From positions 2,464,001 to 2,528,000 of the forward strand of contig OZ244170.1 of the NCBI GenBank assembly GCA_965216565.1: a DNA stretch of 64,000 nucleotides. Direction: 5' to 3'. The position numbers and the translations under genes were made by a program. Below the pieces are notes generated by a model that worked only from the letters and a program-made list of their open reading frames with translations, did no database searches and was not told where the DNA came from. This document shows, one piece after another, positions 47,799 through 60,924 of this stretch (positions are counted from its first letter, which is position 1; every line of letters starts with the position of its first letter). This stretch comes from Bythopirellula sp. (GTDB lineage Bacteria; Planctomycetota; Planctomycetia; Pirellulales; Lacipirellulaceae).

Positions 47799-48692
47799 AT
47801 GAGTATCCCTGCTGGCAAAGAAACCGTTGGCTCTTACCGCCTGTATCACTTGATTCGGGCAGGGGCGATGTACGAGATTTGGGCGGTGCGACCCCTGGAT
47901 CGCGACGAGCCGATGGCCATGAAATGGCTACCCAAAGGCAAGAAGCACACGAAAGAAGCTGCCGACGGTTTGAAGCACGAATACGAAGTGGGCAAATCGC
48001 TCATCCATCCTTCGATCATTAAGACTTTCGACTACGGGACAGGCAAAGACGGCGGTTATTTGGTGATGGAGTTGTTTAAAACTCCTAACCTAAAGCAACA
48101 GATTCACGAAGGCGTCGAAAAGCTGCATTATCGGCTCTCTGAAATATTATGCGCCGCGGCACTGGCCCTGGAGCATATGCACAAAGAAGGCTGGACCCAT
48201 CGCGACGTGAAGCCAGACAATTACCTCGTTGACGAAAACAACGACGTCCGGCTGATCGACTTTACGATTGCCCGCAAGATACCGTCGGGGCTGAGCAAAC
48301 TGTTCAAGAGCAAAGCGCCAGTGCAGGGGTCTTATAGCTATATGTCCCCAGAGCAAATTCGTGGCAAAGAAGTCGACGCCCGCGCGGATATTTACAGTTT
48401 TGGTTGTATGGTATACGAACTGATGTCAGGCAAAGTGCCATTCACGGCGACGTCGTCTTCGGAGTTACTGAACAAGCATCTGAAGGCAAGACCGCAACCG
48501 CTCGACATGTTGCAAAAAAACGTTCAACCAGACTTTGCAAAGCTCGTTCATCGTATGTTGGCAAAAGATCCCAAAGATCGTCCCGACTCATTACTTGAGT
48601 TCTATCGCGAGTTGAAAGCGGGACGATGTTTCCATATTTCTCCGAAACCTCCCAAGCCGGAAGACGAACAGTCTGAGCAGGAGGAAGATTAA
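47799..48692 (+). CDS. Ser/Thr protein kinase
   Basis: AMK, HRDVKPDN, YMSPEQ and DIYSFG motifs. Confidence 0.92.
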   Translation: MSIPAGKETVGSYRLYHLIRAGAMYEIWAVRPLDRDEPMAMKWLPKGKKHTKEAADGLKHEYEVGKSLIHPSIIKTFDYGTGKDGGYLVMELFKTPNLKQQIHEGVEKLHYRLSEILCAAALALEHMHKEGWTHRDVKPDNYLVDENNDVRLIDFTIARKIPSGLSKLFKSKAPVQGSYSYMSPEQIRGKEVDARADIYSFGCMVYELMSGKVPFTATSSSELLNKHLKARPQPLDMLQKNVQPDFAKLVHRMLAKDPKDRPDSLLEFYRELKAGRCFHISPKPPKPEDEQSEQEED

Positions 48693-48694
48693 TC

Positions 48695-49687
48695 ATGGCA
48701 AGTACCGCATTTCGTTTACCGTTTGAACAGCCAATCTACGAATTGTCTGAGCAAATTGATGACCTTGAGAGCAATGACTCAAAGACGCCCGAAATGCACG
48801 ATCGCATTCGCGGTCTGCGGAAACAGCTCACCGAGACAACCAAAACGATCTACAAGAATCTCGGTCCTTGGGAAACGGTACGCGTTGCGCGTCATCCAGA
48901 TCGTCCCATGTTCACCGACTATATGAATTTGGTGTTTGATGAATTTGTCGAGCTACACGGCGACAAGTTTTTTGGCGACGATCGCGCACTCCGCACAGGT
49001 TTTGCCAAGATCGACCAATTCAAAGTGTTGGTAGCCGGGCATCACAAAGGCAAGACCCTCAAGGAGCGCAATGAGTGTTACTTTGGTTGTGCGCATCCAG
49101 AAGGGTATCGCAAGGCCATGGAAAAGATGCAATTGGCGGCTAAGTACGGCTTGCCAATCATCACGCTGATCGATACGCCAGGTGCCTATCCGGGAATTGG
49201 CGCCGAAGAACGGGGCCAGGCCCAGGTGATTGCCGAAAGCATGCTTGCCATGTCGCGACTGCCGGTGCCAATCATATGTATTGTGATTGGCGAAGGTGGC
49301 TCGGGCGGTGCTTTGGGAATTGGCGTTGGCGATCGTGTTGCCGTTTTGCAACACGCCTATTATTCGGTGATCAGTCCCGAAGGCTGCGCCGGCATCCTCT
49401 GGAAAAGTCACGACTACGCCGAGCAAGCGGCCCAAGCCTTGCGAATCACTTCCAGCCATCTGGAGAAGTTTGGAGCCGTCGACGACGTCATTGAGGAGCC
49501 CCTGGGTGGTGCCCATCGCGACCACCATCAGACGGCGGGTCGATTGAAGATGTATCTCATCAAAACGCTCCGCGAATTGTCGAAATTGCCCACCGACGAG
49601 CTGCTGAGTCAGCGGTACGAACGATTCCGCAAAATTGGCCCGTTCAGCGAGGCTGCGGACGATTCTGGGAGCAATTCTGAGGGCTGA
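48695..49687 (+). CDS. accA: Acetyl-CoA carboxylase carboxyltransferase alpha
   Basis: ARHPDRP, ELHGD, IDTPGAYPGIGAEERGQ, GEGGSGGAL and YSVISPEG motifs. Confidence 0.97.
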   Translation: MASTAFRLPFEQPIYELSEQIDDLESNDSKTPEMHDRIRGLRKQLTETTKTIYKNLGPWETVRVARHPDRPMFTDYMNLVFDEFVELHGDKFFGDDRALRTGFAKIDQFKVLVAGHHKGKTLKERNECYFGCAHPEGYRKAMEKMQLAAKYGLPIITLIDTPGAYPGIGAEERGQAQVIAESMLAMSRLPVPIICIVIGEGGSGGALGIGVGDRVAVLQHAYYSVISPEGCAGILWKSHDYAEQAAQALRITSSHLEKFGAVDDVIEEPLGGAHRDHHQTAGRLKMYLIKTLRELSKLPTDELLSQRYERFRKIGPFSEAADDSGSNSEG

Positions 49688-49947
49688 TTCTCTCGGGCCC
49701 GGCGGTCCATCGGATCGCGGCTGTTTTCCAGAGATTTAGACTTTGCTTGCTCCTTCTAAATCCCCTTTGCTGCATTCACATTCATGGTGCATGCTTCGCT
49801 ACTTCGGGGTCATTTTCGGACGCGCCAAATCGTTCCATTTACGGACAGATTTCTGACGTCAGCATGCGGCTGGTTCATTGCAATTTAGGTGACGGTTTGA
49901 GGCCGTAGGGTGGGGCGTGAGATGCAAATAGCATGTATTCCAGACTC

Positions 49948-49973
49948 TAGCCCCAACGTCCGATAATCATAGT
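49948..49973 (+). repeat. att core copy 1 (attL)
   Basis: TAGCCCCAACGTCCGATAATCATAGT. Confidence 0.95.
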
Positions 49974-49990
49974 GGAGTATGGCGTAAGCT

Positions 49991-50080
49991 GGCACTCATT
50001 CTAGGTTTCTCAGACCTGGACAGGGCAGTGCGGATCAGTCCCCGTGGGCGAGTCCGCACTGCCAATTTTCTAGGAGTGCC
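49991..50080 (+). promoter_or_regulatory. Hairpin upstream of rep (candidate origin or RBS-sequestering leader); copy 2 at 52864-52953
   Basis: GGCACTC/GAGTGCC and GGCAGTGCGGA/TCCGCACTGCC nested inverted repeats. Confidence 0.6.
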
Positions 50081-50085
50081 ACTAG

Positions 50086-51207
50086 ATGTTCTCTATGAAG
50101 CTCAAGGACCGCGAGTCCTGGCTTGATCCGGAGTCTGCCGGAATTTTGGGGTGGAAGTTGGGTAAGCGTCTGTGGGCCCGTTGCAAGGGCCACGAGGGAC
50201 GTTTCATCACGCTCACGTACGATCGTAAGAATTACCTAGATGCCCAAGATTGTTTCGACAAGTCCAGGGCACAGAAGCATGTCTCTCGTTTCATGCGGAA
50301 GCTAGGAGCAGCTATCAATTGCGATCTGCGTGGTAAGTGGATTTGCAAGTTGGAGTTCCAAGAGGGCGGGTGGGTCCACTGGCACATTCTGTTGCTGGAC
50401 GTTGGTTACATTCCACAGAAGATCGTTCTTGATATCTGGGGTAAGGGCTTCATCCACCTTAAGCAACTCAACGAAGCGAATGCGATGTATCTGACCAAGT
50501 ACGTTGCGAAGGACGGATCGATTCCAGGTTTCGTATATGACTATCCGTCACGGAGCATCAAGGTTGTCAGAGCGTCACTTGGTTTTTGGAACGATGAGCA
50601 GGCGAAGAGAGCGAGGGAGAAGGCGGCTAAGAGCCGTCGTTCTACTCGTGCTCAACTTATGAAGGGAGCGAAGCGGGAAGAACAGTTCTATGTTCCGGTT
50701 GGTGAGAAGCTGCGACAAGAGGCAGTGTTGTTCCGAACTGGGAGGCGAACATTCTCACTTAAGTGCTCTCGTCTTAAAGTACTGCAAGCTCTTCGTAAGT
50801 ACTGCGGACAACCCAAGGTTGAGGGAACATGGCGACACTACGCAGATGGTGATCAAGTACTGGATCGAGTGGTAGTGGAGTGTGATCCGGCGAGGACGAG
50901 CAGCGTGCGGAAGCAATCGCCCGCAGCCGGAGCAACAGCTCCGCATGACACCCGACCACTATTCTTGAAAGGAACCGGTAATCGTGTCGGATGGTGGTTG
51001 GTCCTGGTAAAGGGCAAGTATCGTACTGTTAGCCCTGCTGACATTGCTGGCAGATTGTCCAAGTGGTGGGCTAAGAATGCTCCGTGGTGGACGCTGCAGT
51101 GGATCGAGCAGGAAGCTAGATATCAGCTTGGAATGACGATGCACGGACATTGGGGTGAACCCTCGGATGCTCGTCCTAATTTGGAGAAGGCCTCATGCAA
51201 TTACTAA
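50086..51207 (+). CDS. HUH rolling-circle replication initiator (copy 1)
   Basis: Motif I FITLTY, motif II EFQ...HWHILL and motif III YLTKYVAK. Confidence 0.88.
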   Translation: MFSMKLKDRESWLDPESAGILGWKLGKRLWARCKGHEGRFITLTYDRKNYLDAQDCFDKSRAQKHVSRFMRKLGAAINCDLRGKWICKLEFQEGGWVHWHILLLDVGYIPQKIVLDIWGKGFIHLKQLNEANAMYLTKYVAKDGSIPGFVYDYPSRSIKVVRASLGFWNDEQAKRAREKAAKSRRSTRAQLMKGAKREEQFYVPVGEKLRQEAVLFRTGRRTFSLKCSRLKVLQALRKYCGQPKVEGTWRHYADGDQVLDRVVVECDPARTSSVRKQSPAAGATAPHDTRPLFLKGTGNRVGWWLVLVKGKYRTVSPADIAGRLSKWWAKNAPWWTLQWIEQEARYQLGMTMHGHWGEPSDARPNLEKASCNY

Positions 51208-51857
51208 CAGACATTCAACGAGATTACCTTAGCTGCATTCATTCGCAATGGGAGAGATCAGCTTTGACGTTTTGTCGTAAGAAGCTCAAGGTGTCCTCTG
51301 AATTTCTTCGGCGAGATGAGTTCGAGGAGCATTGGCAAGCTGCGATGGTTGAGATTGCGTATTTAATTCAGCGAGGCGAGTGGGACATCGTGAAGGAAGC
51401 TGAACGTGGCAATGGTCGAATTTGCTGGATAGCTTTGCAGACGTTTTATCGTTCACGGTATGAGCATAGGTATATGGAACGTGTGCTCGCTGATTCTAAT
51501 GAAGCCCTAATCTCCTTAGTTGAGTCCGAAGAACCAGTTGTTGGAGGAATTAAAGCGTCGAGAGTTGTAAACGAATTAAAGATGTTAATATCTGGTCTTC
51601 CAGAGAAGCGTCGATTGGTGATGGAGATGCTGGTTGAAGTGGTAGAAGACGCTAGATTTGATTTGGATGACATGATGCACTGCGTGAAGCTACGCATACG
51701 TGAGGGACTGTCTGAACGTGGTTATGAGTTCACGCCGATTCAAGTACAGAACGCGTTGTTCTCGGGGCGTAAGCAACTATGGGAACAACTTAGAGAACGT
51801 GGCTTGGTTTCAGGTGAAAGACCCCGCCTTGGAAGAGGTGGCGTTGGAAGTAAGTAG
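51195..51857 (+). CDS. Divergent ECF sigma-70-like protein (copy 1)
   Basis: Region-2-like DEFEEHWQAAMVEI and ICWIALQTF; region-4-like LISGLPEKRRLVMEML and QVQNALFSGRKQLWEQL. Confidence 0.6.
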   Translation: MQLLTDIQRDYLSCIHSQWERSALTFCRKKLKVSSEFLRRDEFEEHWQAAMVEIAYLIQRGEWDIVKEAERGNGRICWIALQTFYRSRYEHRYMERVLADSNEALISLVESEEPVVGGIKASRVVNELKMLISGLPEKRRLVMEMLVEVVEDARFDLDDMMHCVKLRIREGLSERGYEFTPIQVQNALFSGRKQLWEQLRERGLVSGERPRLGRGGVGSK

Positions 51858-51875
51858 TTTGGTTGTTTTCGTGTA

Positions 51876-52037
51876 GTTGTTGCACACTATGGGGTTGCCG
51901 CGTGAGATCGCGAAGGCGAGGCGGCGGAAGAGTTCGGTCCGTGTACAAGGGGCATGGAGAAGCTGAGCACGCCGCCTCGCCGTTAGCGACTCGGGGCAGT
52001 CGAACGCGGCAACAGGGTCCCATAGTGTTGCAACAAC
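51876..52037 (+). other. Long rod-like hairpin (candidate single-strand origin, packaging signal or ncRNA); copy 2 at 54749-54910
   Basis: Four nested perfect stems of 9, 9, 10 and 12 bp. Confidence 0.65.
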
Positions 52038-52060
52038 GGTTCATTTGAAAGGAGTTTGTA

Positions 52061-52348
52061 GTGTCTAATTTGTTTGGAGTTGCTAAAGCAGGTTTTGATA
52101 TTGTTGGGGAGGTCACTGAGGAGCGTATTCTTCGAAGTACCAAGGAGTCGGCCAAGGATTGGAAACAACCTGTGTGTAAGGTAGTTACAGCCGGCTCAAC
52201 TTTAGAGGTCCAACTAACTGAAGAACAGCATTCGCAGGTGTTGGTCGGGAATGCTTACCAGTTCGTTGGCAGAATTGCTAAGGAAGGAGGGAGAATCAAC
52301 CTAGTTGTTGAAGAATTAAGGAAGCTGGCGACGCCGAAGGCGTCTTGA
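52061..52348 (+). CDS. Probable ssDNA-binding (OB-fold-like) protein (copy 1)
   Basis: 95 aa, beta-strand pattern, AAGGAG RBS; size and context typical of SSBs of ssDNA replicons. Confidence 0.55.
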   Translation: MSNLFGVAKAGFDIVGEVTEERILRSTKESAKDWKQPVCKVVTAGSTLEVQLTEEQHSQVLVGNAYQFVGRIAKEGGRINLVVEELRKLATPKAS

Positions 52349-52349
52349 G

Positions 52350-52595
52350 ATGAAGATTCGACCGTACCGAAAGGATGGATATCGCCGACGTCGGCGAGTT
52401 CATGTGAGGATGGACGAATCGTTAGTAGATGCAATGGATGAGTTGGCTAGAGCACTCTCGCTGAGTCGTTCGCATCTCTGTGATCTGATTCTCGGCATAG
52501 CTGTCGAGGAGGGTGGTGAATGGTTACGGTCCGCAATCAACAAGCGTGTAAAACAGGCTCTTAATCGAAAACGTGACAGCACTTTTCAAGAATGA
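52350..52595 (+). CDS. Ribbon-helix-helix (CopG-like) regulator (copy 1)
   Basis: RVHVRMDESLVDAMDELARALSLSRSHLCDLIL fits the RHH pattern. Confidence 0.75.
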   Translation: MKIRPYRKDGYRRRRRVHVRMDESLVDAMDELARALSLSRSHLCDLILGIAVEEGGEWLRSAINKRVKQALNRKRDSTFQE

Positions 52596-52820
52596 GCTTG
52601 ATCTTTGATGATTGCTATCCGTATGATTTTGGAAGGTCGTTCGGGGTGTTCCTGAGCGCGAGAGTGTCTGAGAAATCGACGCGCATAAAATGGGCCCACA
52701 TACTCTCTGACGGGGGAACATGTGAGCCCAATGATTAAGCACGTCACTGAAAGAAATTTCACATCCAGATGACGCATCTACATGATACGAAATCGTCGCT
52801 GCAGGGCAAAGCCTATTCGG

Positions 52821-52846
52821 TAGCCCCAACGTCCGATAATCATAGT
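52821..52846 (+). repeat. att core copy 2 (unit junction, equivalent to attP)
   Basis: Same 26-mer with element sequence on both sides. Confidence 0.95.
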
Positions 52847-52958
52847 GGAGTATGGCGTAAGCTGGCACTCATTCTAGGTTTCTCAGACCTGGACAGGGCA
52901 GTGCGGATCAGTCCCCGTGGGCGAGTCCGCACTGCCAATTTTCTAGGAGTGCCACTAG

Positions 52959-54080
52959 ATGTTCTCTATGAAGCTCAAGGACCGCGAGTCCTGGCTTGAT
53001 CCGGAGTCTGCCGGAATTTTGGGGTGGAAGTTGGGTAAGCGTCTGTGGGCCCGTTGCAAGGGCCACGAGGGACGTTTCATCACGCTCACGTACGATCGTA
53101 AGAATTACCTAGATGCCCAAGATTGTTTCGACAAGTCCAGGGCACAGAAGCATGTCTCTCGTTTCATGCGGAAGCTAGGAGCAGCTATCAATTGCGATCT
53201 GCGTGGTAAGTGGATTTGCAAGTTGGAGTTCCAAGAGGGCGGGTGGGTCCACTGGCACATTCTGTTGCTGGACGTTGGTTACATTCCACAGAAGATCGTT
53301 CTTGATATCTGGGGTAAGGGCTTCATCCACCTTAAGCAACTCAACGAAGCGAATGCGATGTATCTGACCAAGTACGTTGCGAAGGACGGATCGATTCCAG
53401 GTTTCGTATATGACTATCCGTCACGGAGCATCAAGGTTGTCAGAGCGTCACTTGGTTTTTGGAACGATGAGCAGGCGAAGAGAGCGAGGGAGAAGGCGGC
53501 TAAGAGCCGTCGTTCTACTCGTGCTCAACTTATGAAGGGAGCGAAGCGGGAAGAACAGTTCTATGTTCCGGTTGGTGAGAAGCTGCGACAAGAGGCAGTG
53601 TTGTTCCGAACTGGGAGGCGAACATTCTCACTTAAGTGCTCTCGTCTTAAAGTACTGCAAGCTCTTCGTAAGTACTGCGGACAACCCAAGGTTGAGGGAA
53701 CATGGCGACACTACGCAGATGGTGATCAAGTACTGGATCGAGTGGTAGTGGAGTGTGATCCGGCGAGGACGAGCAGCGTGCGGAAGCAATCGCCCGCAGC
53801 CGGAGCAACAGCTCCGCATGACACCCGACCACTATTCTTGAAAGGAACCGGTAATCGTGTCGGATGGTGGTTGGTCCTGGTAAAGGGCAAGTATCGTACT
53901 GTTAGCCCTGCTGACATTGCTGGCAGATTGTCCAAGTGGTGGGCTAAGAATGCTCCGTGGTGGACGCTGCAGTGGATCGAGCAGGAAGCTAGATATCAGC
54001 TTGGAATGACGATGCACGGACATTGGGGTGAACCCTCGGATGCTCGTCCTAATTTGGAGAAGGCCTCATGCAATTACTAA
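52959..54080 (+). CDS. HUH rolling-circle replication initiator (copy 2)
   Basis: Translation identical to 50086-51207. Confidence 0.88.
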   Translation: MFSMKLKDRESWLDPESAGILGWKLGKRLWARCKGHEGRFITLTYDRKNYLDAQDCFDKSRAQKHVSRFMRKLGAAINCDLRGKWICKLEFQEGGWVHWHILLLDVGYIPQKIVLDIWGKGFIHLKQLNEANAMYLTKYVAKDGSIPGFVYDYPSRSIKVVRASLGFWNDEQAKRAREKAAKSRRSTRAQLMKGAKREEQFYVPVGEKLRQEAVLFRTGRRTFSLKCSRLKVLQALRKYCGQPKVEGTWRHYADGDQVLDRVVVECDPARTSSVRKQSPAAGATAPHDTRPLFLKGTGNRVGWWLVLVKGKYRTVSPADIAGRLSKWWAKNAPWWTLQWIEQEARYQLGMTMHGHWGEPSDARPNLEKASCNY

Positions 54081-54730
54081 CAGACATTCAACGAGATTAC
54101 CTTAGCTGCATTCATTCGCAATGGGAGAGATCAGCTTTGACGTTTTGTCGTAAGAAGCTCAAGGTGTCCTCTGAATTTCTTCGGCGAGATGAGTTCGAGG
54201 AGCATTGGCAAGCTGCGATGGTTGAGATTGCGTATTTAATTCAGCGAGGCGAGTGGGACATCGTGAAGGAAGCTGAACGTGGCAATGGTCGAATTTGCTG
54301 GATAGCTTTGCAGACGTTTTATCGTTCACGGTATGAGCATAGGTATATGGAACGTGTGCTCGCTGATTCTAATGAAGCCCTAATCTCCTTAGTTGAGTCC
54401 GAAGAACCAGTTGTTGGAGGAATTAAAGCGTCGAGAGTTGTAAACGAATTAAAGATGTTAATATCTGGTCTTCCAGAGAAGCGTCGATTGGTGATGGAGA
54501 TGCTGGTTGAAGTGGTAGAAGACGCTAGATTTGATTTGGATGACATGATGCACTGCGTGAAGCTACGCATACGTGAGGGACTGTCTGAACGTGGTTATGA
54601 GTTCACGCCGATTCAAGTACAGAACGCGTTGTTCTCGGGGCGTAAGCAACTATGGGAACAACTTAGAGAACGTGGCTTGGTTTCAGGTGAAAGACCCCGC
54701 CTTGGAAGAGGTGGCGTTGGAAGTAAGTAG
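54068..54730 (+). CDS. Divergent ECF sigma-70-like protein (copy 2)
   Basis: Identical to 51195-51857. Confidence 0.6.
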   Translation: MQLLTDIQRDYLSCIHSQWERSALTFCRKKLKVSSEFLRRDEFEEHWQAAMVEIAYLIQRGEWDIVKEAERGNGRICWIALQTFYRSRYEHRYMERVLADSNEALISLVESEEPVVGGIKASRVVNELKMLISGLPEKRRLVMEMLVEVVEDARFDLDDMMHCVKLRIREGLSERGYEFTPIQVQNALFSGRKQLWEQLRERGLVSGERPRLGRGGVGSK

Positions 54731-54933
54731 TTTGGTTGTTTTCGTGTAGTTGTTGCACACTATGGGGTTGCCGCGTGAGATCGCGAAGGCGAGGCGGCGG
54801 AAGAGTTCGGTCCGTGTACAAGGGGCATGGAGAAGCTGAGCACGCCGCCTCGCCGTTAGCGACTCGGGGCAGTCGAACGCGGCAACAGGGTCCCATAGTG
54901 TTGCAACAACGGTTCATTTGAAAGGAGTTTGTA

Positions 54934-55221
54934 GTGTCTAATTTGTTTGGAGTTGCTAAAGCAGGTTTTGATATTGTTGGGGAGGTCACTGAGGAGCGTA
55001 TTCTTCGAAGTACCAAGGAGTCGGCCAAGGATTGGAAACAACCTGTGTGTAAGGTAGTTACAGCCGGCTCAACTTTAGAGGTCCAACTAACTGAAGAACA
55101 GCATTCGCAGGTGTTGGTCGGGAATGCTTACCAGTTCGTTGGCAGAATTGCTAAGGAAGGAGGGAGAATCAACCTAGTTGTTGAAGAATTAAGGAAGCTG
55201 GCGACGCCGAAGGCGTCTTGA
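54934..55221 (+). CDS. Probable ssDNA-binding protein (copy 2)
   Basis: Identical to 52061-52348. Confidence 0.55.
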   Translation: MSNLFGVAKAGFDIVGEVTEERILRSTKESAKDWKQPVCKVVTAGSTLEVQLTEEQHSQVLVGNAYQFVGRIAKEGGRINLVVEELRKLATPKAS

Positions 55222-55222
55222 G

Positions 55223-55468
55223 ATGAAGATTCGACCGTACCGAAAGGATGGATATCGCCGACGTCGGCGAGTTCATGTGAGGATGGACGAATCGTTAGTA
55301 GATGCAATGGATGAGTTGGCTAGAGCACTCTCGCTGAGTCGTTCGCATCTCTGTGATCTGATTCTCGGCATAGCTGTCGAGGAGGGTGGTGAATGGTTAC
55401 GGTCCGCAATCAACAAGCGTGTAAAACAGGCTCTTAATCGAAAACGTGACAGCACTTTTCAAGAATGA
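55223..55468 (+). CDS. Ribbon-helix-helix regulator (copy 2)
   Basis: Identical to 52350-52595. Confidence 0.75.
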   Translation: MKIRPYRKDGYRRRRRVHVRMDESLVDAMDELARALSLSRSHLCDLILGIAVEEGGEWLRSAINKRVKQALNRKRDSTFQE

Positions 55469-55693
55469 GCTTGATCTTTGATGATTGCTATCCGTATGAT
55501 TTTGGAAGGTCGTTCGGGGTGTTCCTGAGCGCGAGAGTGTCTGAGAAATCGACGCGCATAAAATGGGCCCACATACTCTCTGACGGGGGAACATGTGAGC
55601 CCAATGATTAAGCACGTCACTGAAAGAAATTTCACATCCAGATGACGCATCTACATGATACGAAATCGTCGCTGCAGGGCAAAGCCTATTCGG

Positions 55694-55729
55694 TAGCCCC
55701 AACGTCCGATAATCATAGTTATGTTCGTT
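55694..55729 (+). other. att core copy 3 (attR), containing a candidate chromosomal dif site at 55702-55729
   Basis: ACGTCCGATAA-TCATAG-TTATGTTCGTT has the 11-6-11 layout and ATAA-N6-TTATGTT of E. coli dif (GGTGCGCATAA-TGTATA-TTATGTTAAAT). Confidence 0.75.
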
Positions 55730-55916
55730 TCCGGGGCGTTTTTCCCCGGGATTTAAGCCATTGGCTCTCTCCTGCTCTGCGAAGTGTGTTCTGTGGCGGA
55801 TAGCTTGATTGGTGGAAGAAGTCGAGCTAGTCTGTCGTCTCACGGCGGCTACCAATCCCCCACAATGAATCCTCAGTTTGCCCCCCCTCTCGCCACTTCA
55901 AAAGGATGTGAATTGC

Positions 55917-57977
55917 ATGCTCTCTGCGACACGATTTCTGTTATCGATTGCCGTCATTTTGGTTGGGATTTTATTCCCAAATCGGGCCTATTCCGACGAA
56001 GGAATGTGGCTGTTCGAGGACCTGCCCAAAGACGCTCTGAAGCGGCAATATGACTTCGAGCCCACAGAGGAGTGGGCCCGGCACGTCATGCTCTCCAGCG
56101 TCCGATTTAGCTCCGGGGGATCGGCCTCTTTTGTCTCCAGTAACGGCCTGGTTTTGACCAATCACCACGTGGCCGAGGACACGCTGCATAAGCTCTCCAC
56201 GCCCGAGCAAAACTACATGAAAAACGGCTTCCTGGCCCAATCGCAGGACGATGAGATTCCAGCCCCCGATTTGGAGCTGAATCAGCTTGTTTCGGTCGAA
56301 GATGTGACCGACCGCGTCGAGGCGGCAGTGTCTGACGAGATGGATACTTCGGCCGCAAAGCAGGCCCGCAGGGCCGTGATGGCGCAAATCGAACAGGAAT
56401 CGCTCGACGCCACGGGTCTGCGAAGCGATGTGATCACGCTCTATGGCGGCGCAAAGTACCATCTATATCGCTACAAGAAGTACACCGATGTACGCTTAGT
56501 CTGGGCTCCGGAATACAAAGCGGCATTCTTCGGAGGCGACAACGACAATTTCGAGTATCCCCGGTACTGCATGGACGTGACGTTGTTCCGTGTTTACGAA
56601 GACGGCAAGCCAGTGGAAGTCGAGCATTTCCTCCGTTGGTCAGAAAACGGAGCGGCCGAAGGCGAACTCGTCTTCGTTTCTGGCAACCCCGGCTATACCG
56701 AACGAGACAAGACGGCCGACGCCTTGCGATTTGCTCGTGACTTTTCTTTGCCAAGCTATCTACAGTACATCACGCGGATGGAAATTGAGCTGCAGCAGTA
56801 TAGCAACGAAAGCCCGGAACATCGCCGACGCGCCCACGATGATCTGTTTGGAATTCAAAACAATCGCAAACGTTCGCTCGGCATGAGTGAAGGTTTGCAG
56901 AATCCAGCGCTGATCGCCACAAAGGAAGCTGCGGAGAAACAATTGCGTGCTCGGCTAGCAGAACGTGACGATCTGGAAGAGTTCGCCACAGCGTGGGATG
57001 AGATTGCCACCGCCCAACAGGAACGAGAAAAGCTCGTCAACGATTCTTTCTATATTTCATCGCGGCTGTACGAGATTGCTTTAGAACTGGTTCTCATGGC
57101 CACCGAAGATGCGAAACCGAATGAAGATCGTTACGAAGAGTTCCGCAATTCGGGTCGCGAATCGCTCGAACACGAATTGTTCTCCCCTGCGCCTATTTAC
57201 AACGATTTGGAGATTGCAAAGCTTGGAGCGAGTCTCTCGCTAGTGGCGGGCAAGTTGGGTGGCGATCATCCACTGGTCGTCACGATGCTTGCCGGGAAAA
57301 GCCCTCGCCAGCGGGCTGCTGAGCTAGTTGCTGGCACCAAGCTCAACGATGTTGAGTTGCGAAAGACACTCGCTAAGGAGGGCGCAGCTGCCATCGAAGC
57401 TTCAGACGATCCCATGATCGAGTTCGTACGAGCGATTGAGCCCTACTACCGCAAAGTTCGCGATCGCCAGGAAGAGCTTGAGGAAATCGAAAAACAGGCT
57501 TACGGCTCAATCCGCGAGGCCAAGACGGCGCTCGACGGTGCGAGCGGTTATCCCGATGCCACCTTTACCCTGCGGCTGGCTCTTGGTGTGGTGAAGGGCT
57601 ACGAAGAAGACGGCGTGTGGGTACCTCCATTTACGACCATCGCCGGTGCCTTTGAACACGAAGAGAAGCACGAAGCTAAGGAACCATGGCAACTGCCGGA
57701 GTCGTATCACGAGCATCGCGACCAGGTGGATGGTTCGGCACGGCTAAACTTTGTTTGTACGGCGGACATCATCGGCGGCAACTCCGGGAGTCCCGTCGTG
57801 AATCGCGATGGCGAGTTTGTCGGCATCATCTTTGACGGCAACATTCAAAGTCTCACTGCTTCGTACTACTACGACGACGTGATCTCGCGAGCCGTCTCGG
57901 TCCACAGCAGCGGCATCCGTGAAGTGATCCGCAATATCTACGGTGCGGACGATTTGGCTGACGAGTTGGGGGAATGA
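55917..57977 (+). CDS. S46 family peptidase (dipeptidyl-peptidase)
   Basis: Signal peptide followed by DEGMW; LTNHH, FGGDNDNFEYPR, PDATFTLR and DIIGGNSGSP motifs. Confidence 0.93.
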   Translation: MLSATRFLLSIAVILVGILFPNRAYSDEGMWLFEDLPKDALKRQYDFEPTEEWARHVMLSSVRFSSGGSASFVSSNGLVLTNHHVAEDTLHKLSTPEQNYMKNGFLAQSQDDEIPAPDLELNQLVSVEDVTDRVEAAVSDEMDTSAAKQARRAVMAQIEQESLDATGLRSDVITLYGGAKYHLYRYKKYTDVRLVWAPEYKAAFFGGDNDNFEYPRYCMDVTLFRVYEDGKPVEVEHFLRWSENGAAEGELVFVSGNPGYTERDKTADALRFARDFSLPSYLQYITRMEIELQQYSNESPEHRRRAHDDLFGIQNNRKRSLGMSEGLQNPALIATKEAAEKQLRARLAERDDLEEFATAWDEIATAQQEREKLVNDSFYISSRLYEIALELVLMATEDAKPNEDRYEEFRNSGRESLEHELFSPAPIYNDLEIAKLGASLSLVAGKLGGDHPLVVTMLAGKSPRQRAAELVAGTKLNDVELRKTLAKEGAAAIEASDDPMIEFVRAIEPYYRKVRDRQEELEEIEKQAYGSIREAKTALDGASGYPDATFTLRLALGVVKGYEEDGVWVPPFTTIAGAFEHEEKHEAKEPWQLPESYHEHRDQVDGSARLNFVCTADIIGGNSGSPVVNRDGEFVGIIFDGNIQSLTASYYYDDVISRAVSVHSSGIREVIRNIYGADDLADELGE

Positions 57978-60763: not shown

Positions 60764-60924
60764 AGGGAAAGATTCGAGGTGAGGGGCAGAAGCAGGGGCA
60801 CGGGACGAACCACAACTTAGGCGAAACGAATCCAACTGACAACTGACCACTGACAACGGACAAGGAACCTGCGATACTAGTAGATTCCCCTCCCCTGCCC
60901 TGCCCTATCCTGCTTAAAAAACCT

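Follow-up and report, generated by a model that had tools for sequence, protein, structure and literature searches.

A very probable chromosomal dif site in Bythopirellula sp., conserved across its order, and the small integrase-less element inserted beside it

The source genome of a Bythopirellula sp. (order Pirellulales, phylum Planctomycetota; hereafter G000) is a single contig of 5,211,746 bp, and in the 64,000-bp stretch analysed here and called the window (G000:C1:2464001-2528000) it carries a 28-bp sequence that is very probably the chromosomal dif site. Immediately to the left of this 28-mer lies an insert that reads as two identical tandem copies of an element that encodes a rolling-circle replication initiator (Rep) and no integrase. 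From sequence comparisons, we consider it likely that the 28-mer is dif and that the element, which brings its own mimic of dif, was integrated there by the Xer recombination system of the host. The comparisons described below point to a real and well-supported dif site, which can be generalized to the order and carries a new family of small Xer-exploiting elements.

Planctomycetes divide without FtsZ. According to a 2025 review, ftsK is the only division gene conserved throughout the planctomycetes and is essential in Planctopirus limnophila; XerC, XerD, dif, GC skew and dimer resolution are all unmentioned in that review (PMC12673574). A 2011 survey of dif sites lists the Planctomycetes among its failed predictions, with one genome and none predicted (PMC3025954). 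Searching the main text of open-access papers and preprints by keyword and by arm string, we found no description of this site; the papers matched by arm string, among those listed, looked unrelated by title and were mostly of the primer type.

A first-pass annotation, made from the letters of the window, had proposed three junctions, two of which differ from the third in the XerD arm, and the positions of a 17-mer together with the arms that continue it bear this out. The 17-mer ACGTCCGATAATCATAG, which comprises the XerC arm and the spacer, occurs three times in the window, at 49956, 52829 and 55702 (0 expected from 100 shuffles), with a junction spacing of 2,873 bp; after the spacer comes TTATGTTCGTT at the right copy only and TGGAGTATGGC at the left and middle copies. 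The complete 28-mer on the right has an 11-6-11 layout, ACGTCCGATAA-TCATAG-TTATGTTCGTT, with partly palindromic arms and an inner ATAA/TTAT. Compared with the XerD arm of dif, TGGAGTATGGC is equal at 4/11 positions (1, 5, 6 and 9) and the spacer before it at 6/6, which upholds the earlier description of an element attachment site (attP) that keeps the XerC arm and the spacer and has a non-canonical XerD arm. All three junctions have in common a 26-bp core, TAGCCCCAACGTCCGATAATCATAGT, made of 8 bp, the 11-bp XerC arm, the 6-bp spacer and one further base. That identity ends one base after the 6-bp spacer had been noticed before and is confirmed by the junction alignment; its start, 8 bp leftward of the XerC arm, had gone unmentioned. 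The two 2,873-bp units between the junctions show 0 mismatches to each other, and no tRNA or Rfam family, both of which were looked for, lies beneath the site.

The 28-mer is read as dif because it is conserved and single-copy, because the genes for the Xer recombinases and FtsK are present and because a polarity resembling that of FtsK-orienting polar sequences (KOPS) converges on it in 6/6 genomes; on these four grounds the candidate put forward by the first-pass annotation is supported. Over the 5,211,746 bp searched, the 28-mer has one match at up to three mismatches, and the search for a better dif elsewhere in the genome yielded no second match to the pattern within that limit. At the level of the genus, the XerC arm followed by TCNNNG was found in 25 of 27 genomes and in 19/19 of the high-quality ones; an alignment of 13 loci shows no difference in either arm, variation being confined to the spacer. 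The conservation in related genomes that had been suggested as a check extends to the order, in which the arms with a free spacer (at most three mismatches) are present in 117 of the 121 genomes sampled, representing 82/84 genera and 28 families, and are nearly always single. The arms are near-invariant there and nearly all variation falls in the spacer and the outer XerD arm, the commonest form being ACGTCCGATAA-TGTTTC-TTATGTTCGGT and the order consensus ACGTCCGATAA-N6-TTATGTTCG[G/T]T. Across the phylum the full pattern was recovered from 19 of 101 sampled genomes and the core ACGTCCGATAA-N6-TTATGT (at most one mismatch) from 57 of the same 101, with 0 for a control read backwards. At this depth the XerC arm ACGTCCGATAA is nearly invariant, whereas the XerD arm takes several forms in its four outer bases (CGTT, CGGT, AAAT, GCGT).

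A few genomes gave a second match. The double dif matches of G062 and G106 were rejected as inserts, being strain variants of one locus; that of G086 was likewise rejected, since it consists of two different loci; and the second XerC-arm match in G004 is a chance one, within coding sequence and without a XerD arm.

The host encodes XerC (TIGR02224, 361.3 bits for a cut-off of 335.15), XerD (TIGR02225, 363.9 bits for a cut-off of 329.6) and an FtsK of 1,034 amino acids (aa) with 4TM, alpha, motor and gamma domains, the last of which aligns to solved FtsK gamma domains (E 2e-10). FtsK proteins seem usually to end at gamma. In the protein at hand (L092:502-3606 = G000:C1:5172002-5175106) gamma covers residues 754-814 and is followed by about 220 more residues.

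The polarity of one octamer is, in our judgement, the strongest computational evidence for dif. When octamers were ranked by the range of their strand-difference walk across the genome, the most skewed word was GGGCAGGG/CCCTGCCC, with a score of 6.17; the best unrelated word reached 2.88, and the next eight words overlap the top one. The walk of GGGCAGGG turns at 2,511,856 and near 5.06 Mb, 254 of its 297 copies (85.5%) are aimed at the site, and the best terminus for it in a 10-kb scan is 2,520,000, the bin that holds the site. The window contains 15 copies against 2.3 expected, of which 13 are forward, all left of the site, and two are reverse, both right of it; within 60 kb on either side there are 14 forward and no reverse copies on the left, no forward and six reverse copies on the right. 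This strand flip at dif was seen in 6/6 genomes examined, that is, G000 and five others. Forward and reverse copies number 23/1 to the left of dif in G012, where the next five copies on the right are all reverse; left and right of dif respectively, they number 12/2 and 0/11 in G018, 13/0 and 3/12 in G011, 13/0 and 2/17 in G043 (another genus), and 12/1 and 1/13 in G045 (another family). In both G045 and G043, GGGCAGGG also comes first in an unbiased ranking of flipping octamers. For E. coli, Vibrio and Pseudomonas, this same word has been given as the core of the KOPS (PMC3384302). Its behaviour is what would be expected of FtsK-orienting words around dif, and GGGCAGGG may be regarded as a candidate FtsK guide word in these bacteria.

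Sequencing runs of two other studies (X1 and X2) provide contigs, with flanks about 98-99% identical to ours, that join position 49947 of the window to position 55694, skipping exactly 5,746 bp and leaving 26 bases common to both sides. They represent the empty site in close strains, and the 8 bp TAGCCCCA to the left of the XerC arm are therefore native chromosome. The claim that integration left dif on the right thus finds support in the complete dif seen there, in the empty site of these close strains and in the same geometry of three further inserts described below. As to the copy number, in the strain's own run X7 the unit contig (2,899 nt) has a depth of 155, the flanks 81-87 and the middle-junction contig (34 nt) 85, and in its run X4 the corresponding values are 36.9, 18-27.8 and 16.1; such contig depths are rough only, and they fit two tandem copies. 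No empty-site or single-copy contig was present in X4 or X7, contigs being blind to rare variants.

Inserts at dif were also encountered in relatives. In G013, of the same genus, a related element with a Rep 62% identical and with homologues of two further element proteins, one of 95 aa and one of the ribbon-helix-helix type, abuts dif and the chromosomal right flank; only its right junction is assembled, its left end being absent from the assembly, and a second contig runs from left flank through dif to right flank, so that occupied and empty sites coexist in the assembly. In G076, from another genus of the family, an element of the same family, 4,681 bp long, lies between an attL and dif (G076:C1:2437319-2442027; L186, L178, L189). 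Its attL reads ACGTCCGATAA-TCGCCG-TGAAGAATGTC and its dif ends TCGCTG-TTATGTTCGTT; the two spacers differ at position 5, on the XerD side, and are equal at the XerC-side bases. The Rep starts 119 bp after attL in G076 and 130 bp after it in G000. The pseudo-arms TGAAGAATGTC of G076 and TGGAGTATGGC of G000 are equal at 8/11 positions, with T1, G5 and G9 of dif preserved in each; on account of this agreement the arm is considered conserved within the element family and not random. The G076 element also carries a PLD-like gene (258 aa, PF13091, E 4e-9), apparently as cargo. G110 has an insert of 10,226 bp with the attL arm TGGCCTTCGTC (G110:C74:6256-16509; L188, L190); a distant Rep-like gene lies on the opposite strand of this interval, which may be a larger or composite element. 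Finally, G011 has an unrelated insert of 1,120 bp beside accA, with the attL arm CTAGGGTGGTT (L074, G011:C1:483093-484251); it contains only small open reading frames (148 and 63 aa) without a family match, and its accA neighbour was recognized by eye from the translation, with no family search.

In all four inserts with both junctions (G000, G076, G110 and G011) the insert sits on the XerC side and a complete dif stands on the right. In three of the four, identity runs out no more than one base from the boundary between spacer and XerD arm, and in G076 it does so inside the spacer; the shared stretch measures 26 bp in G000, 19 bp in G011 and 17 bp in G076. At positions 2 and 4 of the XerD arm, 4/4 left junctions have a base other than that of dif, while T1 and G5 are each kept in three of the four. 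TLC libraries showed these same two bases, T in position 1 and G in position 5, to matter most (PMC9226527).

Taken together, these observations suggest the following course of events. XerC and XerD of the host would add a crossover at dif and thereby resolve chromosome dimers, FtsK being steered to dif by GGGCAGGG words that point inward from both chromosome arms. The 2.87-kb element would bring a mimic of dif, with 26 bp equal to the XerC side of the host followed by the non-canonical arm, and would integrate by Xer recombination in or at the spacer; catalysis by XerCD is suggested by the junction anatomy of the four inserts. Each integration would leave a crippled site on the left and rebuild a complete dif on the right, and the tandem pair could have arisen by entry of a second copy into the rebuilt dif or by integration of a replicative dimer, both being allowed by either route of exchange. 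The first exchange may be made by XerC, with a Holliday junction finished by replication or by host junction enzymes, as in VGJ and CTX. By analogy with the Neisseria gonococcal genetic island (GGI) and TLC, it is plausible that the non-canonical arm renders excision by the FtsK-driven reaction inefficient and the element thereby stays in place. On thin data we lean slightly towards a XerC-first rather than a XerD-first route, because the spacer mismatch in G076 lies on the XerD side and the XerC-side bases match.

Several facts sit uneasily with such a scenario. An alignment search with the Rep in 201 genomes of the order gave six matches including G000, and of the five other Rep-carrying genomes only G076 and G110 have the Rep between an attL-type site and dif; in G081 it is found on the XerD side, 6 kb away from dif, and the genome has no second XerC arm. 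(The Rep match of G127 is on another contig than dif, and the Rep-carrying G313 was left out of this comparison.) Among more distant Rep relatives (L028 and 10 metagenome loci) no convincing dif-like site was found, the sole match being one with five mismatches in L083; a scan of viral contigs found no match. To the left of the XerC arm, moreover, the element is equal to the flank of its own host over 8 bp in G000 (TAGCCCCA) and 9 bp in G013 (cTACCGGCA); such an identity of 8-9 bp beyond the arm is not foreseen by plain Xer chemistry. A mutation acquired later could account for the one spacer difference in G076, and homologous recombination could in principle act on 26 bp of identity. With regard to the flank stretch, G000 and G013 differ from each other at 3/8 positions, a conserved element block, AGGGCAAAGCC, stands 15 nt from the XerC arm in G000 versus 12 nt in G013, the flanks of other genomes at this place read like yACCnnCA, and identity left of the arm extends over 2 bp in G076, 5 bp in G110 and 2 bp in G011. 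It is tempting to hypothesize that the attP of the element was re-copied from the host flank through heteroduplex or branch migration of the Holliday junction, two cases being at hand.

A different order of strand exchange, borrowed from TLC, deserves consideration, although we regard it as rather unlikely: an element-encoded factor of a new family would activate a XerD-first exchange at an attP poorly bound by XerD, and XerC would complete the reaction. The G000 attP has the layout of the TLC attP, with a spacer fully equal to that of dif and only the XerD arm non-canonical (PMC9226527, PMC6744903); the pseudo-arms of both G000 and G076 retain T1 and G5, and two or three of the element's small proteins are of no assigned function. 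The first-pass annotation had suggested that an element protein may act as XafT does for TLC, which found no support, for a search of the whole genome with DUF3653 (PF12375), the XafT domain, gave no match at E <= 1. This null result also counts against the TLC-like route, as does the lack of a singled-out activator: the unassigned proteins common to the elements resemble a DNA binder or a regulator, both weak leads, and nothing in the G013 element clearly corresponds to the second open reading frame (ORF2). The spacer mismatch on the XerD side in G076 argues mildly against a XerD-first exchange as well.

Entry independent of Xer appears improbable. In that case RecA-dependent homologous recombination over the 26 bp, or a recombinase acting in trans, would have placed the element, and the left half of dif would have been hit by chance. 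The absence of a recombinase from the element and the identity of 8-9 bp beyond the XerC arm, equal each time to the host's own flank, would suit such an event, but three of the four inserts end their identity within one base of the spacer/XerD-arm boundary, G011 shares only 19 bp, and in G076 the identity is down to 17 bp and stops inside the spacer. Insertion always on the XerC side with a full dif rebuilt is, besides, the known signature of Xer exploiters and is not expected from homologous recombination.

Returning to the identification of dif, each property of such a site that could be computed was found at the 28-mer, except a position at the GC-skew switch, and here the evidence runs against us. 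The first-pass annotation had named the genome-wide GC-skew switch as a check, and by that measure the site does badly: the cumulative GC skew has its maximum at 1,404,128 and its minimum at 3,864,611, so that dif, at 2.52 Mb, is about 1.1 Mb from the maximum at 1.40 Mb. Detrending leaves these extremes in place, and those of the AT skew, at 1.50 and 3.75 Mb, agree with the GC-skew axis. No sign change of the GC skew occurs within 100 kb on either side of dif in G012, G018, G011 and G045, and the change in G043 is weak. The mismatch does not, in our judgement, outweigh the evidence from conservation and polarity; it is overruled because the KOPS-type signal, which is tied to the function of dif, peaks in the very 10-kb bin that holds the site. 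When the chromosome is partitioned by GC skew, only 152 of the 297 GGGCAGGG copies (51.2%) aim at the supposed terminus. In G045, of which 70 stretches of 20 kb were sampled, the skew slope changes near 2.0 Mb, close to dif at 1.86 Mb, and the offset is therefore not an order-wide property. A strand-independent component of the skew is present in genes of both orientations. Whichever way they are oriented, the segments 1.40-2.52 Mb and about 3.86-4.7 Mb carry two signals at odds with each other, and an inversion or misassembly cannot explain the offset, because both signals belong to the same DNA.

One speculative reading, to which we give limited credence, is that the chromosome has two separate axes, one of segregation, marked by KOPS and dif at 2.52 Mb, and one of replication, marked by skew at 1.40 and 3.86 Mb, about 80 degrees apart, together with an attP re-copied from the host flank; if the two-axis part were true, dimer resolution would take place away from the meeting place of the replication forks. 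A DnaA paralogue of 348 aa (PF00308 and PF08299; G000:C1:3867072-3868118, L093:2072-3118) lies about 2.5 kb from the GC-skew minimum and has the ATPase and C-terminal DNA-binding domains without the N-terminal ones; the full-length dnaA (497 aa), at 1.7535 Mb, is on neither axis. No cluster of DnaA boxes stood out (maximum three boxes per 600 bp), and the single rRNA operon, at 0.226 Mb, is compatible with either axis. It is highly improbable that the 28-mer is another single-copy landmark (the site of another recombinase, or a regulatory palindrome) and that the real dif is situated close to the GC-skew terminus, at about 1.40 Mb, since the distance of about 1.1 Mb to the GC- and AT-skew extremes that speaks for this is set against the want of a second pattern match in the genome at up to three mismatches, the 51.2% of GGGCAGGG copies aimed at the GC-skew terminus versus 85.5% at the 28-mer, a dif-like layout with dif-like inner XerD-arm bases, and conserved arms around a variable spacer, as is typical of dif.

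Two local departures in composition were seen along the way. Within the window the element (49948-55693) has a G+C content of 50.4%, against 54.1% for the window, and a coding-strand GC skew of +0.21, which accounts for a local skew spike at 2.51-2.52 Mb of the genome. In G011 an interval of about 80 kb that spans dif (L069-L070, G011:C1:443101-523100) has a GC skew of -0.17 to -0.27, far past the norm of that genome.

How does this arrangement compare with Xer exploiters known from elsewhere? Like the TLC-phi satellite of Vibrio cholerae, the planctomycete element is small, has a rolling-circle initiator and no integrase, and presents an attP with a good XerC arm, a spacer matching that of dif and a poor XerD arm, from which dif is rebuilt and arrays are allowed (PMC9226527, PMC6744903). 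Unlike TLC-phi, for which XafT serves as activator, it resides in a genome without the DUF3653/XafT domain; its Rep belongs to another family (PF23343, of the Microviridae and small-plasmid type), its pseudo-arm is conserved at 8/11 positions between family members, and identity runs 8-9 bp outside the XerC arm. DUF3653 proteins are described as confined to gamma- and beta-proteobacteria (PMC6744903). The element therefore resembles TLC and GGI in its working and is not a member of the TLC family, since the XafT domain was tested for and not found. The GGI of Neisseria has an altered XerD arm that is thought to prevent FtsK-driven excision (PMC9226527), yet it is very long and altered at only four outer positions of the arm, whereas the planctomycete element is 2.9 kb long and has the inner positions 2-4 replaced. 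A folded attP of the CTX-phi type was rejected for our element, which has no inverted second dif-like half with which to form a hairpin attP; a fold of the attP region shows only a hairpin upstream of rep. VGJ keeps a canonical XerD arm. What these Vibrio elements, VGJ-phi and CTX-phi, have in common with our case is that a XerC-first exchange completed by the host would suit a site without a usable XerD side (PMC9226527, PMC3442271). In Legionella, as here, the dif mimic of an element, LME-1, exposed the dif of an order in which prediction had failed (PMC9765430); there a single recombinase, XerL, is involved and was shown experimentally, whereas the planctomycete case concerns a canonical XerC and XerD pair and is computational only. 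With respect to E. coli, whose KOPS are GGGNAGGG (PMC3384302), the 11-6-11 layout of dif and the polar octamer GGGCAGGG are alike and an FtsK gamma domain is shared, but among the planctomycete arms it is that of XerC which varies least, with variation in the outer part of the XerD arm, and the G000 site is 1.1 Mb from the GC-skew switch. For the arms of other phyla the opposite trend has been stated (PMC3025954).

The order consensus of dif and the candidate FtsK guide word would make dimer resolution and the direction of FtsK testable in planctomycetes, and dif would provide a terminus-side landmark for genomes in which GC skew misleads. The element family, for its part, adds non-proteobacterial examples of Xer exploitation with a conserved non-canonical XerD-side arm, and the element would offer a natural small vehicle for site-specific integration in a phylum with few genetic tools.

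The genes of the element and its surroundings are collected in Table 1. Over its HUH domain (residues about 20-167) the Rep is 26-36% identical to Reps of Microviridae and small plasmids. ORF2 has no Pfam or PHROG match; it gave only a weak sigma-70-like atlas lead, is homologous, at 23% identity (E 7e-8), to a protein of the G076 element, and its structure model (pLDDT, predicted local distance difference test, 47.8) was too poor for a fold search, as was that of the 95-aa protein (pLDDT 59.1), whose homologue in the G013 element is 39% identical. The ribbon-helix-helix protein has a close homologue in the same G013 element, by comparison of the translations by eye. The eight PF00589 matches of the genome all lie outside the element, which thus contains no tyrosine recombinase; a Pfam scan of six of its open reading frames (the four main ones and two small ones) returned no serine recombinase or transposase, no search having been aimed at either, and it has no recognized virion genes. 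The chromosomal flanks are of housekeeping type: left of the insert lie truA, a Ser/Thr kinase and accA, right of it a peptidase S46.

Table 1. Features of the window around dif and the tandem element (window coordinates)
Feature	Position	Strand	Remarks
Last forward GGGCAGGG before dif	47857..47864	+	
accA, left chromosomal neighbour	48695..49687	+	PF03255, E 2e-131
Element copy 1	49948..52820	+	2,873 bp when counting starts at base 1 of the 26-bp core; identical to copy 2
Left junction, attL	49956..49983	+	XerC arm, spacer, non-canonical arm TGGAGTATGGC
Candidate origin or operator, 40-nt hairpin between attP and rep (inferred)	50024..50063; copy 2 52897-52936	+	
Rolling-circle replication initiator, 373 aa	50086..51207; copy 2 52959-54080	+	PF23343 REP_ORF2-G2P, E 6e-15; PHROG replication initiators
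ORF2, 220 aa	51195..51857; copy 2 54068-54730	+	No family
95-aa protein, possibly a G5P-like single-strand DNA binder	52061..52348; copy 2 54934-55221	+	Weak atlas lead, 0.86-0.87
81-aa ribbon-helix-helix protein, probable regulator	52350..52595; copy 2 55223-55468	+	PF01402 RHH_1, 20.5 bits, at cut-off
Element copy 2	52821..55693	+	2,873 bp
Middle junction, element attP as read on a circle	52829..52856	+	
Right junction attR, very probable chromosomal dif	55702..55729	+	XerC arm ACGTCCGATAA, spacer TCATAG, XerD arm TTATGTTCGTT; genome position 2,519,702
Peptidase S46, right chromosomal neighbour	55878..57977	+	PF10459, E 2.5e-204
First two reverse GGGCAGGG copies past dif	60893..60905	-	

Just to the right of the XerD arm, at 55730-55755 of the window, there is a hairpin-like motif, GTTTT(T)C...G(G)GAAA, with the form CCGGGGCGTTTTTCCCCGG in G000. 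A simple scan for terminators found none at this place; the motif could be an accessory site, a terminator or a promoter element, and it is kept at the same position beside dif in many genomes of the genus and the order (L004-L013, L088, L089, L187, L189).

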